The position numbers and the translations under genes were made by a program. 33,085 nucleotides of DNA from Acidobacteriota bacterium (GTDB taxonomy: Bacteria; Acidobacteriota; HRBIN11), in assembly GCA_030550225.1 (NCBI GenBank), contig JAUQPV010000003.1:1-33085 (forward strand), in the 5' to 3' direction. This document shows positions 6,642-13,977 of the stretch, one piece after another. The notes under the pieces are model-generated. The model made no database searches, was not told the origin of the DNA, and saw only the letters and a program-made list of their open reading frames with translations. Numbering within the stretch: the stretch's first letter is position 1; each line of letters starts with the position of its first letter.

Positions 6642-7196
6642 ATGCCCGAATCGGTGGAAAAGACCACAAAGTGGTACGTCTTGCATACTTACGCCGGTCA
6701 GGAGGATGCCGTCCGGGAGGCCCTGGAACAACGAGTCCGGGCGTACAACCTCCAGGATAAGGTCCGGCGGATCCTGGTCCCCCGGCAAAAGGTCATCGAG
6801 ATCCGGGACGGCAAACGGGTCGAGACCGAGCGCAAGCTGTTTCCGGGCTACATCCTGATCGAGGCCGACCTGGACGACGAGCGGACCTGGCAAATCGTCC
6901 GGACGACGCCCCGGGTCGCCGGGATCATCAGCGCCGGTCGGCGGCCGATGCCCTTAACAGACGAAGAGATCCAGCGGATCTTCGAGCAAATCCGGGAAGC
7001 CGAGGAAAAGCCCGTCACGGAACTCGAATTCGAGCGCGGGGAGACGGTCCAGATCATCGACGGCCCCTTTACCGGTTTCGTCGGGCAAATCGAGGACATT
7101 AACTACCAGAAGCAGACCCTTCGGGTCGTCGTCACCATCTTTAGCCGGGCCACCCCCCTGGAGCTCAGTTTCTTGCAGGTCAAGAAGTTGCAGTGA
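6642..7196 (+). CDS. nusG: Transcription factor NusG
   Basis: KWYVLHTYAGQE, LFPGYILI, KOW domain GETVQIIDGPFTGFVG. Confidence 0.97.
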   Translation: MPESVEKTTKWYVLHTYAGQEDAVREALEQRVRAYNLQDKVRRILVPRQKVIEIRDGKRVETERKLFPGYILIEADLDDERTWQIVRTTPRVAGIISAGRRPMPLTDEEIQRIFEQIREAEEKPVTELEFERGETVQIIDGPFTGFVGQIEDINYQKQTLRVVVTIFSRATPLELSFLQVKKLQ

Positions 7197-7232: not shown

Positions 7233-7661
7233 ATGGGTAAGAAGCGGGAGGTCGCTACCGTACGGTTAATCTTGGAAGGCGGGAGCGCCACGCCGGGTCC
7301 ACCGGTCGGCCCGGCCCTGGGTCAGCACGGCGTGAACCTGATGGAGTTTGTCAAGACCTTTAACGCCTTGACGGCCTCGATGCGGGGCCAACAAGTCCGG
7401 GTCCTGGTCCATATCTACGAGGACCGGACGTTTTCCGTCGAGCTGAAGGGTCCGGTGACCTCATTTCTGTTAAAGCAACTGGCCGGGATCGTGAAGGGCT
7501 CGGGGACGCCGAATAAGGAGAAGGTGGGTAAGATCACGCGGGCCCAACTGGTCGAGCTGGCCCGTCAGCGGATGAAGGATATGAACTGTGATTCCCTCGA
7601 GGCGGCTGTCCGGACCCTGGAGGGTCAGTGTAAGAGTATGGGCATCGCCGTCGTGGATTAA
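7233..7661 (+). CDS. rplK: 50S ribosomal protein L11
   Basis: ATPGPPVGPALGQHGVN, IYEDRTF, SMGI; synteny. Confidence 0.97.
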   Translation: MGKKREVATVRLILEGGSATPGPPVGPALGQHGVNLMEFVKTFNALTASMRGQQVRVLVHIYEDRTFSVELKGPVTSFLLKQLAGIVKGSGTPNKEKVGKITRAQLVELARQRMKDMNCDSLEAAVRTLEGQCKSMGIAVVD

Positions 7662-7662
7662 A

Positions 7663-7793
7663 GATGGGCAATAAGGCAGTGAGGCAGTAGGGCCGTAAGG
7701 CCGTAAGTTCTACCGGACGGGCATTTCAGGATGCCCCCAGTGACGGCGTACATAGACGGATGGCCTTACTGCCGTATTGCCTAATGGCCTAAT
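7663..7793. repeat. Inverted pair of octamer arrays between rplK and rplA
   Basis: GATGGGCA ATAAGGCA GTGAGGCA GTAGGGCC GTAAGGCC (7663-7702), then complementary GGCCTTAC TGCCGTAT TGCCTAAT GGCCTAAT (7762-7793). Confidence 0.8.
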
Positions 7794-7812
7794 CCTGTGC
7801 CGGAGGATTGCG

Positions 7813-8508
7813 GTGGGGCGTAAATACGCGGCGGCGCTGGCGAAGGTCGAGGCCCGGCCGTACCGTCTGGAAGCGGCCCTGGCTCTGCTGAAGGAGATCG
7901 CTTTTGCTCGATTCGATGAGACGGTCGAATTGGCCTTGCGTCTGGGGGTCGACCCCCGAAAGCCCGAGCAACAGGTGCGTGGAAGCGTCGTCCTCCCGCA
8001 CGGAACGGGCAAAGCCCGGCGCGTCCTGGCCATCGCCGTCGGCGACAAGGCCGTCGAGGCCCGCCAGGCCGGGGCCGATTTCGTCGAAGGCCCCGAGGTC
8101 GTCGAGCGGATCGAGCAAGGGTGGCTCGACTACGATGCCGTCGTCGCCACGCCGGACATGATGCGCTTTTTGGGACGCGTCGGAAAGGTCCTGGGTCCCC
8201 GAGGCCTGATGCCGAACCCGAAGGCCGGTACGGTCACCCAGGACATCGGTCGGGCGATCCGAGAAATCAAGGCCGGTCGTGTGGAGTTTCGGACAGACAA
8301 GACGGGTAACGTCCACATTCCTGTCGGGAAGAAGTCCTTCCCGGTCGAGCACCTGGTCGAAAATGTCCTGGCGGCCGTCGAAGCCGTCCTTCGGGCGAAG
8401 CCCTCGACGGCCCGAGGGAAGTACCTCCGGCGGGCCTACGTGAGCACGACGATGAGCCCAGCCTTGGAGTTGGACCTGAACGACCTGCTGGCCCGTCTGC
8501 GGGTGTAG
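7813..8508 (+). CDS. rplA: 50S ribosomal protein L1
   Basis: [32 protein letters not shown]; GTG 7813 after GGAGG at 7802-7806. Confidence 0.97.
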
Positions 8509-8684
8509 GGCCATTCGGGAATTCGGCAGTTCGGCAGATGGGCAGTTTGTCAAAGAGCTTAGAGCAGAGAGGGCAGAGGATGCGGGGCGCTGGACTCGTA
8601 GCGCTTTACCCTATGCGCTGGGCTCTTGGCCATGGGCTTACCCACCGAACGGCCGGATTCCCGAACTGCCGAATTGCCGAATGA
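8505..8684. repeat. Inverted pair of octamer arrays between rplA and rplJ
   Basis: GTAGGGCC ATTCGGGA ATTCGGCA GTTCGGCA GATGGGCA (8505-8544), then CCGAACGG CCGGATTC CCGAACTG CCGAATTG CCGAATGA (8645-8684). Confidence 0.8.
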
Positions 8685-8697
8685 TGGAGTCCTGACG

Positions 8698-9648
8698 ATG
8701 CGTGTCCGACCCAACCGGTTGAAGAAGGAAGAGTGGGTCCAGTCCTTTCGGCAGGAAGTCCTGCAGTATCCGGCTGTCCTCTTGCTGGCGCCCCAGGGCG
8801 TCTCGGCCCGAGAGGACCTGCAGATCCGGCGTCGCATCAAGGCCTTGCAGGCCCACTATCGGGTCGTCAAGAACCGTCTCGCCCGGCTCGCCTTCCAGGG
8901 GACGCCCTTCGAGAAGCTAAGCGACGCCCTCCGGGGGATGACGGCCGTCGCCTATCATACGGACGGGGTCGCCCTCGCCAAGTTGGTTCGGGACCTCATG
9001 AAGGAATACACGCACCTGGCCTTTAAGGCGGCCGTCGTCGAGGGCCAGCTCTTTACCGACAAGCAACTGGACTTATTGATCAACCTGCCGTCGAAGGAGT
9101 CGGCCCGGGCCCAACTGTTGGGCCTCTTCCAAGGTCCGGCGGCCCGGATGGTCCGGCTTCTGGCGGCTCCGCTTCAGCAATTTTTAGCCGTCTTACATCA
9201 GGCCCAAGCCCAACGGGCTCAAGAGCCTGCACGAGAAGGAGGTGGTCCCATGGCCGAGCTGACGAAGGAGCAGGTCATCGAGTACCTGAGTAGCCTGACC
9301 GTCACCCAGCTCGTCGAACTCGTCAAGGACCTCGAGCAACGGTGGGGTGTCCAGGCGGCGGCCGCCGTGCCGATGGCGGTGCCTGTCGCCGGCGGGGTCC
9401 CCGCCGGGACGACCGAGGAGGAGAAGGTCGTCACATACAACGTCGTTATCAAAGACGCCGGTCAGCAAAAGGTCCAACTCATCAAGGTCCTGCGGGAGAT
9501 CTTCCCGGAGCTGGGCCTGAAGGAAGCGAAGGCCCTGGTCGATGCGGCGCCCAAGACCATCAAGGAGGGCCTTACGCGGGAAGAGGCCGAGGACCTCAAG
9601 AAGAAACTGGAGCAGGCGGGCGCCACGGTCGAGATCACGTCCAAGTAA
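8698..9648 (+). CDS. rplJ: 50S ribosomal protein L10 reading in frame, without a stop, into L7/L12 (L10-L12 fusion ORF)
   Basis: L10 motifs VVKNRLARLA, L.G.TAVAY, LPSKE. Codons 9181-9249 checked by hand and contain no stop; the only stop is TAA 9646-9648. ATG 8698 follows GGAG. Confidence 0.9.
   Translation: MRVRPNRLKKEEWVQSFRQEVLQYPAVLLLAPQGVSAREDLQIRRRIKALQAHYRVVKNRLARLAFQGTPFEKLSDALRGMTAVAYHTDGVALAKLVRDLMKEYTHLAFKAAVVEGQLFTDKQLDLLINLPSKESARAQLLGLFQGPAARMVRLLAAPLQQFLAVLHQAQAQRAQEPAREGGGPMAELTKEQVIEYLSSLTVTQLVELVKDLEQRWGVQAAAAVPMAVPVAGGVPAGTTEEEKVVTYNVVIKDAGQQKVQLIKVLREIFPELGLKEAKALVDAAPKTIKEGLTREEAEDLKKKLEQAGATVEITSK
9250..9648 (+). CDS. rplL: 50S ribosomal protein L7/L12 (internal in-frame start)
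   Basis: GAAGGAGGTG (9235-9244) then ATG 9250; MAELTKEQVIEYLSSLTV...LGLKEAKALVD...LEQAGATVEI. Confidence 0.93.
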   Translation: MAELTKEQVIEYLSSLTVTQLVELVKDLEQRWGVQAAAAVPMAVPVAGGVPAGTTEEEKVVTYNVVIKDAGQQKVQLIKVLREIFPELGLKEAKALVDAAPKTIKEGLTREEAEDLKKKLEQAGATVEITSK

Positions 9649-9696: not shown

Positions 9697-12600
9697 ATGA
9701 GCCAGTCCGTATTGGAACGATACCGCCGCACGGAAAGCGGGCGTTACTCGTTTGCCCGCATTTCGTCGGACTTGCCGCTCCCCCACCTGATGGAGCTCCA
9801 ACGCCGTTCGTACCAGGAGTTCCTTCAGATGGACCTCCTGCCCGAGGAGCGCCAGGACGTCGGCCTCCAGGCCGTCTTTAAGCAGATCTTCCCCATCGTC
9901 GACTACCGGGGCATCTGCCAGCTCGACTTTGTCGACTACACGGTCGGCGTGTGGGAGTGTCTCTGCGGTCACCTGAAGGGCCTCGAGTACCTCCGGACGA
10001 CCTGTAGCGGCTGTGGGGCCCGGATCCCCGTCAACCCCGAGGAAGGCGACAGCGTCGTGTGCCCCCAGTGCGGCACACTGAACCGGGAAGTCCTCCAGGT
10101 CTGTCCCAAGTGCCAGACGTACGTCCACCTGAAGAATCGCTACACGGACCGGGAGTGTAAGGAGCGGGGCGCGACCTACTCGGCCCCCCTGCGGGTCCGC
10201 TTGCGACTGTCCCTGTTCGAGACGCCCGAGGACCGGGAGGCGGGCCGACCCAAAGAGGTGAAAGAACAGCTCGTTTACTTCGGGGAGATCCCCCTGATGA
10301 CCGAGTTCGGGACCTTCATCATCAACGGGACCGAGCGGGTCATCGTCAGCCAGCTTCACCGGTCACCGGGGGCTTACTTCCGTCAGATCGGCCGGCGGTC
10401 CTACCTGGCCGAGGTCCTTCCCTATTACGGGGCCTGGATCGAGCTGATGTACGACCGTCGGGGCATCCTGCATGCCCGCATCGACCGCCGGAAGAAGGTC
10501 CCGGGAACAGTCCTCTTGAAGGCTTTTGGCCTGGAAAGCAACCAGGCGATCCTCCAGCGCTTCTACCAGATTCATCACGTCCGTCTCCACGAAGAAGCCA
10601 TCGAGGTCGAGCTGACGGACCGGCTGGTCAACGTCCGGGTCCTCCAGGACGTCGTCCATCCGAAAAAGAACACCCACGTGATCGTCCCAGCCATGGAGCG
10701 GTTGACCCGACCCCGCCTGGAAGAGGCCCTGGCGGCCGGTGTCAAGACCGTGATGGCCCGGACCCGACTCCTGTTCCGTCGAGCGTACTTGGCCGAGGAT
10801 GTCGTCGACCCCACGACCGGGGAGGTCCTGGCCACGGTCGCCTCCGAGGTGACCCCGGAGCTGGTCGAAACCCTGATGAAGAAAAAGATCCTCGACCTGG
10901 CCGTCGTGTTCCCGGACCGGGAGCCCATCGGCGACACGCTGATCCTGACGATGGCCAAGGACAAGACCCAGGACCGTAAAGAGGCCCTCCGGGAGATCTT
11001 TAAGAAGCTTCGGCCTGGGGACCAGGCGACGACGGAGACGGCCCGGATCTTCTTCGAGGAACTCTTCTGGAACCCCCGGCGGTACAGCCTGGGCCCCGTC
11101 GGCCGCCTGAAGCTGAACACGAAGCTCGGGATGGACAAGCCCCTAACCCAGACGACCTTGGACCTGGACGATATCTGTCGGATCACGGAATACGCCCTGA
11201 AACTCCAGCGGAACCTCACCCAGGTCGACGACATCGATAGCTTGGCCAACCGGCGGGTCCGGGCCGTCGGCGAGCTCCTGCAAAACCAGCTCCGGGTCGG
11301 CCTGAGTCGGATGGAGCGGTACATCAAGGAGCGGCTGAGCGTCCTGACGGACCTCACCGACGTCATGCCGGGCGACCTGATCAACACCAAGATGGTCATG
11401 GCCTCGGTCCGGGAATTCTTCGCCACGGGCCAGCTTTCCCAGTTTATGGACCAGACGAATCCCCTGGCGGAGATTACCCACAAGCGACGGCTCAGCGCCC
11501 TCGGCCCCGGCGGCCTGAACCGAGAGCGGGCCGGTTTTGAGGTCCGGGACGTTCACCCGACCCACTATGGCCGGGTTTGCCCCATCGAGACGCCGGAAGG
11601 CCCGAACATCGGCCTGATCGTCTCCCTGAGCTGTTATGCCCGGGTCAACGAGTTTGGCTTCATCGAGAGTCCCTACCGGAAGGTCGAGGACGGTCGGGTC
11701 GTCGACTACGTGCGCATCCTCCATCCCGGGGGTTCGCCCTTCGAGAAGGGCCAAATCCTGCCCCGCGAGGAGGTCGACCGGGTCAACCAAGACTTGACAA
11801 AAAAGCGGAAACAGCCGGCCCGGTACGAGATCCACATCTGGTACATGACGGCCTGGGAGGAAGCCCAGTACGTCATCGCCCAAGCGACGGTCCCCTTGGA
11901 CAACCACGGCCGCATCATACCGGACTTTGTCATCGCAAGGCGTGCCGGCGAGATCGCCCTCGTCCCCCGGGAGGAGGTCCAGTTCATCGACGTCTCGCCC
12001 AAGCAGGTCGTCAGCGTCTCGGCGAGCCTGATTCCGTTCCTCGAACATGACGACGCCAACCGGGCTTTGATGGGCTCGAACATGGAGCGGCAGGCCGTAC
12101 CCCTGATGAAGCCTGAGCCGCCCATCGTCTCGACGGGGATGGAGGCCATCACGGCCCGGGACTCGGGCGCCGTCTTGGTCGCCGAGGAGGACGGCATCGT
12201 CGAGGCCGTCGACGCCACCCGGATCGTCGTGCGCTCCCGCCGGTCCCCAGGGGAGGACCGGGTCCGCATTTACAAGCTCCGAAAGTTGGAGCGCTCGAAC
12301 CAGGGGACGTGCATCACCCAACGGCCCATCGTCCGCCCGGGTCAAGAGATCCGCAAGGGCCAGGTCATCGCCGACGGTCCGGCGACGGCCGAGGGCGAGC
12401 TGGCGTTGGGTCGGAACGTCTTGGTCGCTTACATGCCCTGGCACGGCTACAACTTCGAGGACGCCATCGTCATCAGCGAGCGCCTCGTCGAGGAAGACGC
12501 CTATACGTCGATTCACATCGAGGAGTTCGAGGTCCAAGTCCGGGAGACCAAGATCGGCGAGGAACAACTGACCCGGGATGTCCCGAAGGCGACGCCGGAC

Positions 12601-13977
12601 CAGCTCCGGCACCTGGACGACACGGGGATCGCCGTCATCGGTTCGTACGTCAAGCCGGGCGATATCCTCGTCGGTAAGGTGACGCCCCAGCCGGAGACGG
12701 TCCAGACGCCGGAGGAGCGCCTCATCGCCGTCATCTTCGGCGAGAAGGGGAAGTCCTTCACCGACTCGTCCCTGCGGGTCCCGCCCGGCGTCGAGGGCGT
12801 CGTCGTGGACGTCAAGATCTTCGCCCGCCGGGGCGTCGAAAAAGACCCCACGATGCGGGAACTCGAACGGATCGAGAAGGAGAAGATCCAACGGGACCAG
12901 GAAGACCAGGTCCGCATCCTGCGGGAAAACGTGAAGCTTCAGTTGGCGACCCAGCTCGCCGGGGCTGAGCTCCGGGAGGCCCTGCGGGACATCCACGGCC
13001 GAGAGATCTTCCCGAAGGGTCACGTCCTGCGAGCCGAGGACATCGAGGGCCTGGAATTCTTAGACCTGGAGAATCTCAAGCTCCGGCAAGCGGCGGCCCA
13101 GAAGACCCTCCGGGACGTCCTCAAGCGGTACCACCAGCGACTGAAGGTCCTTCGGAGCATTTACGAGGAACGGCTGAAGCGCCTCGAACAGGGCGACGAG
13201 CTCCCGCCCGGTGTCCTCAAGGTCGTCAAGGTCTACGTAGCCATGAAGCGGCGTCTGCAGGTCGGTGACAAGATGGCCGGCCGGCACGGTAACAAGGGCG
13301 TCGTCGCCATCATCCTCCCCAGGGAAGACATGCCGTTCTTGCCGGACGGGACACCGGTCGACATCGTCCTGAACCCCTTGGGCGTACCGTCCCGGATGAA
13401 CATCGGCCAACTCCTGGAGGCGAATCTGGGCTGGGCCGCTCATGTGCTCGGCGTGCGCTTCGAGTCGCCCGTCTTTGACGGCGCTCGGGAAGAGGACATC
13501 CGGGCCCTTCTGAAGGCGGCCGGCCTGCCCGAAGACGGCAAGACGATCCTCTACGACGGACGGACGGGTGAGCCTTTCGAACAGCGGGTCACGGTCGGCT
13601 ATGCCTACATGATGAAGCTGGTCCATATGGCCGAGGATAAGATCCACGCCCGGGCCACGGGTCCCTACTCGCTGATCACCCAACAGCCTCTGGGCGGTAA
13701 GGCCCGCTTTGGCGGCCAGCGCCTCGGCGAGATGGAGGTCTGGGCCCTGGAGGCTTACGGCGCCGCTTACGCCCTCCAGGAGATGCTGACCGTCAAGTCT
13801 GACGACATCGACGGCCGTCTGCGACTGTTCCAGAGCATCCTTCGGGGTCACCCCCGGATCGAGCCGACGATCCCCGAGTCCTTCCGGGTCCTGATGAAGG
13901 AACTGCAGAGCTTGGCGCTGGACGTCGAGCTCATCTACCAGACACCGTCCGAGGAGGTCCGGGAGGCGGCCTCGTAA
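9697..13977 (+). CDS. rpoB: RNA polymerase beta subunit
   Basis: [52 protein letters not shown]; ATG 9697 after GAGAGG. Confidence 0.99.

Follow-up and report, generated by a model that had tools for sequence, protein, structure and literature searches.

The L10-L12 stalk of the ribosome recruits translational GTPases, and in archaea and eukaryotes its base, uL10 (P0), bears a C-terminal tail of its own that resembles the tails of the stalk proteins P1 and P2. In bacteria, several genes are known to give two proteins from one open reading frame (ORF) by in-frame internal initiation, among them infB (the forms of IF2), cheA (long and short forms) and clpB. In the canonical bacterial stalk, whose components come from separate rplJ and rplL genes, uL10 carries two to four dimers of bL12; a solved example is available from Thermotoga maritima (PDB 1ZAV/1ZAW/1ZAX). 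L12 copy numbers run from 4 to 8 per stalk, with 4, 6 or 8 copies treated as a tuned trait tied to growth rate in one study (PMC12179292), in which the words “fused” and “fusion” do not occur. Here, we describe a bacterial locus in which the two genes are one. It lies in a stretch of 33,085 nucleotides (nt), referred to below as the window, from a hot-spring Acidobacteriota bacterium of the class HRBIN11 (assembly GCA_030550225.1, contig JAUQPV010000003.1, positions 1 to 33,085 of the forward strand). In it, rplJ has no stop codon before rplL, and uL10 is translatable only as L10-L12.

One reading frame for uL10 and bL12

Positions 8698-9648 (+) form a single frame of 316 codons and a TAA, encoding uL10, a linker of nine residues and a complete bL12. 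The open frame extends from 8626 to the TAA at 9646-9648; translation from the ATG at 8698 gives a product of 316 residues, and this start is backed by alignment with class relatives, the proteins of family f1 all beginning with MRVRPNRL. A second ATG at 9250 shares the frame of the first, with no stop from the L10 part to 9250. Ribosomes that start at ATG 8698 will read on into L12, because there is no stop codon to release them. Thus, uL10 is not a separate polypeptide that ends after its helix alpha8, as no stop precedes 9646, and the rplL part is not a free-standing gene, as it sits in frame within the rplJ frame. The features of the fused gene are as follows:

8698-9648, + strand: single rplJ-rplL ORF, 316 codons plus TAA, calculated mass 34,964 Da
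8698-9222, + strand: uL10-homologous part (residues 1-175), globular domain and helix alpha8; PF00466, collinear with 4v63_BJ and 1zav_A
9136-9222, + strand: helix alpha8 (residues 147-175), long type, predicted to dock L12 dimers; a helix in the AlphaFold2 model, with gapless alignments
9223-9249, + strand: linker of nine codons, EPAREGGGP; its place is taken by a stop and an intergenic spacer in relatives outside the class
9235-9244, + strand: internal Shine-Dalgarno (SD) sequence GAAGGAGGTG, translated as Glu-Gly-Gly and followed by 5 nt and ATG 9250
9250-9252, + strand: in-frame ATG, proposed internal start of free bL12 (predicted 132 residues, 14,297 Da)
9250-9345, + strand: bL12 N-terminal dimerisation and L10-binding domain (residues 185-216); PF16320, with AlphaFold2 helices at 190-199 and 202-216
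9346-9435, + strand: bL12 flexible hinge, Ala/Pro/Gly-rich (residues 217-246); low model confidence at 217-248, aligning to the hinge of solved bL12 chains
9436-9645, + strand: bL12 C-terminal factor-binding domain (residues 247-316); PF00542, the only match of that family in the genome

Both halves are recognized by Pfam. Ribosomal_L10 (PF00466) matches residues 6-100 with 65.4 bits, against a cut-off of 22.8, and Ribosomal_L12_N (PF16320; residues 189-236, 53.6 bits) and Ribosomal_L12 (PF00542; residues 247-313, 89.7 bits) both score above their curated cut-offs. N-domain, hinge and C-domain of bL12 are all present, and the bL12 part can be aligned over its full length to the solved chain 1dd3_A. 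At the junction, the linker codons include CGA at 9232-9234 and GAA GGA GGT at 9235-9243, and 5 of the 10 codons in 9220-9249 are one substitution away from a stop.

The linker is preceded by a long-type helix. In the T. maritima L10 chain 1zav_A (180 residues), positions 114-177 correspond without a gap to 109-172 of the fused protein, and in Thermus thermophilus L10 (4v63_BJ, 173 residues) positions 108-168 correspond, again without gaps, to 110-171, while alignments to L10 chains of 163-166 residues (the Escherichia coli type) stop about ten residues sooner in the query. A helix of this type docks three L12 dimers, as in 1zav with its three bound L12 N-domain dimers, and the long alpha8 of the fused protein would be expected to do likewise. 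An AlphaFold2 model, built on an alignment of 21 sequences (mean predicted local distance difference test score, pLDDT, 69.5), has a confident L10 core (pLDDT >90 at residues 11-120), places helix alpha8 at 147-175, and leaves residues 176-189 without secondary structure (pLDDT <50). Beyond these, it predicts the L12 N-domain helices within 190-216, a disordered hinge at 217-246 (pLDDT <50 at 217-248) and the C-domain at 247-315. A total of 43 PDB sequences matched the protein, none of which spans both the L10 and the L12 part.

An earlier note on this DNA, made from the sequence alone, had read rplJ and rplL as one ORF in which L10 lacks a stop, and had called the L10 helix long and Thermotoga-like. 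The frame, the coordinates and the quoted codons all proved correct, and the gapless alignment to 1zav_A bears out the comparison with Thermotoga.

Conservation in the class and recurrence beyond it

The genome that holds the window (G000) is a metagenome-assembled genome (MAG) of 385 contigs, 90.6% complete and with a GC content of 64%. To place its fused gene, we searched 13 species genomes of the class, 12 of which hold the locus, in three families; each junction was inspected at the DNA level and the proteins were aligned. L10 and L12 form a single stop-free match in all 12, at identities to the window protein that run from 98% down to 33%. No stop has been regained in the class, although identity between the L10 parts has fallen to 33%. 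The thirteenth genome (G005) gave no true L12 match, and its locus is probably missing from the assembly.

The junction is also bridged, with 0 indels, by contigs from three other studies, two from DNA (X3 and X7) and one from an RNA library (X9), the last of which is no proof of transcription. The sole difference from the window in the linker of those contigs is 9233 G>A, which turns CGA into CAA and Arg into Gln and is also found in genome G001. As an observation in its own right, this G/A polymorphism divides the window genome from G001 and the contigs of the three other runs; the linker tolerates the change, and neither variant is a stop. Public protein collections contain more fused relatives, at 54-93% identity. 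The fusion is real, and neither chance nor error.

Outside the class, the picture is a different one. In a phylum sample of 401 evenly drawn genomes, made up of the class members and 388 others, none of the 388 gave a full-length stop-free L10-L12 match. (The unpublished genome G035 is one outgroup genome, and is included only in the outgroup and phylum tallies; none of our conclusions hangs on it alone.) Eight rows of this sample showed suspiciously long open frames; on inspection, all carry a stop or a frame change, and so does a comparable row from the Nitrospira class (G482), so that the listed open-frame length is no dependable sign of a fusion in rows with two matches. In several relatives outside the class, rplJ and rplL already lie in the same frame, parted by a single stop.

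A scan of named genome records returned three Nitrospira loci with a stop-free fusion. Within the Nitrospira class, 78 of 151 sampled genomes have a full-length stop-free match (77 covering residues 1-311, and G452 covering 4-311); the remainder comprises one match cut by a contig end and others with stops or two separate matches. We inspected 17 junctions of this type, 15 from among the 78 and two from the named records (L063 and L082). In all 17, the ATG of the L12 part follows AAAGGAG, GGGGAGG or a similar motif, which is translated as K-G-E-G-D/E. Four non-fused relatives have stops. The fusion loci of the Nitrospira class include:

L063 and L082: fused loci from named records
L095: fused locus of Nitrospira sp. 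RSF12
L125-L138: further fused loci

Since relatives in both phyla have split genes, and since the two sets of fusions share only 36-37% protein identity and differ in their linkers, we take the origins in the class and in Nitrospira to be independent.

We further searched 1.84 billion cluster representatives, which yielded 16,296 matches and, among these, 22 clean full-length fusions (counted as 50%-identity clusters). Excluded from the 22 were five two-stretch proteins and some truncated ones, which resemble frame errors or fragments. The pattern GG-x(0-3)-M stands at the L12 start in 14 of the 22 and a Met in 16; several others have Val or Leu at that position, which could reflect GTG or TTG starts. 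The fusion is therefore not unique to the window genome, as a large Nitrospira clade and other clusters share the L10-L12 architecture. Some metagenome proteins (P0008-P0011, P0014 and P0120-P0137) are fused with other linkers at about 33-42% identity, which suggests additional independent fusions; the linker of P0134 is long and acidic, and P0145 has a 30-residue extension. Apart from these, proteins P0116, P0117, P0119, P0124 and P0135 (593-1066 residues) have 5-8 separate L12 C-domain matches each, as tandem arrays of L12 heads.

We also asked whether L12 is encoded elsewhere in these genomes. Searches with the whole protein and with PF00542 gave one L12 C-domain match of >90 bits each in G000, G001 and G007, and it lies inside the fused frame. 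The same holds for four Nitrospira-class genomes in which the match is on a contig of 2.1-4.6 Mb: each has a single L12, inside the fused frame. No second rplL was found in these seven genomes with either query. One candidate for a second L12 was dismissed, as it matched only in part, with 31 bits, and in a frame that is short and unrelated. It occurs in two genomes of family f3, G005 (C11:84118-84216, L033) and G007 (C4:130638-130733, L034), in a frame of 93-123 residues distant from the ribosomal cluster.

The proposed internal start of free L12 and the competing explanations

The linker contains a ribosome-binding site. The 3' end of the organism's own 16S rRNA (contig C161) is GGATCACCTCCTTT, with which AAGGAGGTG of the internal SD pairs over 9 nt. 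The starts of nusG, rplA and rpoB have weaker SD motifs or none, and the start of L10 itself has a weak one, much shorter than the internal site:

8686-8689, + strand: SD of the L10 start, GGAG, 8 nt before ATG 8698

The internal SD is thus the strongest among the starts inspected in the gene cluster. GGAGG stands 4-7 nt ahead of an ATG at the first L12 codon in all 12 class genes, in the context gAAGGAGGtggtcccATG in genus g1, cAAGGAGGaacttccATG in genus g2, tcaGGAGGagaaATG in family f3 and ataGGAGGaaaaacaATG in family f2. The linkers themselves vary (EGGGP, EGGSP, QGGTS, SSGGE, IIGGKT and IIGGTT), and the only invariant columns are the two glycines encoded by GGAGG. GGA is a rare choice for Gly in the window genome, where it accounts for 10.8% of all Gly codons and for 12.4% of those that come first in a Gly-Gly pair. 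At the sequence level, bL12 has the signals of a translation start of its own (SD and ATG).

That free L12 arises from this SD and ATG has good support from the sequence: one fused L12 for each L10 would leave a dimer-docking helix unfilled, two old clades and most of the other fusions have kept the start signals, and no second L12 gene turned up in G000, G001 or G007. The earlier note had proposed that the codons GAA GGA GGT double as a strong SD 5 nt before ATG 9250, which agrees with the 9-nt match to the anti-SD. It had also predicted two products, a fusion of 316 residues and a free L12 of 132. The first of these is what the frame, stop-free in 12 of 12, predicts; the second holds as far as the start signals go, with GGAGG and ATG kept in 12 of 12.

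We propose the following mechanism. The linker would be the former intergenic spacer, still bearing the old rplL ribosome-binding site in the form of Glu-Gly-Gly codons. The loss of one stop is sufficient to explain its origin, as the linker sits exactly where outside relatives have a stop and a short spacer. The rplJ stop would have been lost in the ancestor of the class and the fusion retained afterwards; the same stop loss would have occurred independently in Nitrospira and in other lineages, with the internal start kept each time. Ribosomes starting at ATG 9250 would make free L12 of 132 residues, as the conservation of this start suggests. If the long alpha8 docks three L12 N-domain dimers, the stalk may be assembled in two ways. 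One L10-L12 may combine with five free L12, the tethered N-domain folding back onto the last docking segment across a flexible linker of roughly 14 residues; alternatively, six free L12 may be joined by a seventh, tethered head.

We consider it probable that the locus gives a fused L10-L12 together with free L12 by internal initiation, and that this arrangement arose by stop loss, has been kept since and has recurred in other lineages. Selection to maintain the fusion has moderate support from the sequence comparisons, given that 5 of 10 junction codons are one step from a stop, which none of the 12 genomes of the class and none of the 78 from the Nitrospira class has acquired. We lean, by a little, towards the wider reading as well: a stalk base covalently joined to one L12 throughout whole clades (this class, the bulk of the sampled Nitrospira and about twenty more sequence clusters), selected, convergent and P0-like (asymmetric, 1+5, or seven-headed, 6+1), in which the ratio would be set by the two starts.

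Several points weigh against this interpretation. The 12 class genomes are kin, and may represent three or four independent lineages. GGAGG is not rare in the coding sequence of this genome (2.4 per kb), and the Gly-Gly could have been retained for the flexibility of the linker and not for an SD. The low-GC families probably use GGA commonly, so the codon argument leans mainly on family f1. The spacing between SD and ATG is just 4 nt in family f3. Around the internal ATG, the mRNA of 10 of the 12 genes folds less strongly than the average over the gene, but only by about one standard deviation, and L004 and L015 lack this weaker local folding. Finally, in the RNA run X20, 3 reads were placed, all on a repeat and 0 on the fused gene.

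Among the other explanations, cleavage after translation survives best, and we regard it as unlikely. According to it, the fusion is a precursor cut in the linker by a protease, so that mature ribosomes carry ordinary L10 and L12, to which free L12 from the internal start adds copies. A linker that is predicted to be disordered and exposed would suit a protease, but no conserved cleavage motif was seen, and beyond Gly-Gly the linker residues vary between the families and between the two clades. Moreover, if the tether had no role, the regain of a stop should be harmless, and yet none of the 12 and 78 fused genomes has regained one.

It is very improbable that there is no internal initiation and that the stalk is made from fused chains alone, for example by N-domain dimerisation between ribosomes or as a one-headed stalk. 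This would supply one L12 per L10 to a conserved long alpha8 collinear with 1zav_A, would give no reason for the retention of ATG and GGAGG in all 12 class genes and all 17 of the Nitrospira type, and would leave the strength of the internal SD among the cluster starts unexplained. We give equally little credence to recoding, by which most ribosomes would undergo a programmed frameshift at the internal SD and end at an out-of-frame stop, so that L10 would mostly be made on its own and the fusion only in small part. SD-like sequences within genes can stimulate frameshifting, as in prfB and dnaX, and out-of-frame stops do lie just past the ATG, at +10 in family f1 and +1 in family f3. However, their positions vary between families (-14 and +25 or +28 in f2), ATGA-type overlaps are frequent by chance, and no slippery motif was noticed on reading the junctions, for which no pattern search was made.

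The last alternative takes up the earlier note's own caveat of a sequencing error or recent mutation: an error of sequencing or assembly, or a mutation of very recent date, would hide a true stop after L10 in this one MAG. It has next to no probability left: the assembly is in 385 contigs and one base change would be enough to restore a stop, but the alignment of junctions from related genomes that the note had suggested finds stop absence and frame conserved in 12 of 12, down to 33% identity, and since the fusion is conserved across three families and present in independent assemblies (other-study contigs with 0 indels, metagenome proteins at 54-93% identity), we rejected error and dropped the caveat.

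Surroundings of the locus and comparison with known systems

The genes around the fusion are arranged in the order tuf, a tRNA, a secE-like ORF, nusG, rplK, rplA, fused rplJ-rplL and rpoB, with the following coordinates:

6642-7196: nusG
7233-7661: rplK
7777-8508: rplA
9697-13977: rpoB

At gathering thresholds, Rfam finds five tRNAs only, and no L10 leader family. In the spacer between rplA and rplJ, inverted arms of TTCGGCAG-like octamer units (8509-8547 and 8645-8682) flank the L10 leader. With as many as 5 substitutions allowed, the 35-nt core of this repeat occurs 39 times in the window genome, spread over 33 contigs; it is common to many unrelated contigs in other runs, and sequencing depth spikes there. 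From its sequence, it looks like a dispersed repeat of the repetitive extragenic palindrome (REP) or miniature inverted-repeat transposable element (MITE) kind, lying in the leader of the stalk gene. Downstream, rpoB has an insertion near the N-terminus of the beta subunit (about 9950-10150) that resembles a double zinc ribbon and contains four Cys pairs (CLCGH, CSGCG, CPQCG and CPKCQ).

Full-text literature searches, outside whose range lie a 2013 stalk-stoichiometry survey and its supplements, returned no paper on a naturally fused L10-L12 in bacteria, and public records name members of the fused cluster simply 'L7/L12' or 'L10'. We conclude that this variant of the bacterial stalk is real, conserved and recurrent, and that it has apparently not been described. 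As a practical consequence, the fused protein may be mishandled by those marker-gene and phylogenomic pipelines that count on two. If a covalent L10-L12 is indeed made naturally and clade-wide, it would be a new stalk architecture in bacteria, with an odd or asymmetric valency and a built-in nucleus for stalk assembly; it would be a one-gene, two-start answer to a stoichiometry of 1:5 or 1:6, and a parallel to the archaeal and eukaryotic P0 design, reached independently by plain stop loss. Cultured Nitrospira exist, and the sampled Nitrospira-class genomes may include cultured strains; if so, the fusion would be testable in ribosome preparations or culture proteomes.

Compared with the canonical bacterial stalk, much is unchanged. 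Both halves of the fusion are ordinary members of their families, the order nusG-rplK-rplA-rplJ-rplL-rpoB is kept, alpha8 is collinear with that of 1zav_A, and the rplL part keeps its own SD and ATG. The difference is that the fused gene has no stop between its parts, so that L10 is always made with a covalent L12. The fusions of Nitrospira (L095, L082 and L063) share this architecture, with a short linker (KKGEGD/E) and an SD-like motif before a conserved ATG, but belong to another phylum, are 36-37% identical and have a different linker. As in infB, cheA and clpB, an SD and a start lie inside a longer frame, and a long and a short product with a common C-terminus are predicted. Unlike in those genes, the short product would be the ancestral complete protein and the long one a fusion of two ribosomal proteins, both products being predictions here.

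The P0-like architecture proposed in the earlier note holds as an analogy of layout, and not as homology. As in P0, the stalk base covalently bears one copy of the factor-recruiting element that is also present on the free stalk proteins. In contrast to P0, what is tethered is a complete bL12, with N-domain, hinge and C-domain, that is not homologous to the P1/P2 tails; Pfam searches at E-values up to 0.01 matched bacterial L10, L12_N and L12 families only in the fused protein, and no P-protein family. The L10-L12 fusion also differs from P0 in its apparent age and route, as it would have arisen recently, within bacterial clades, through the loss of a stop.

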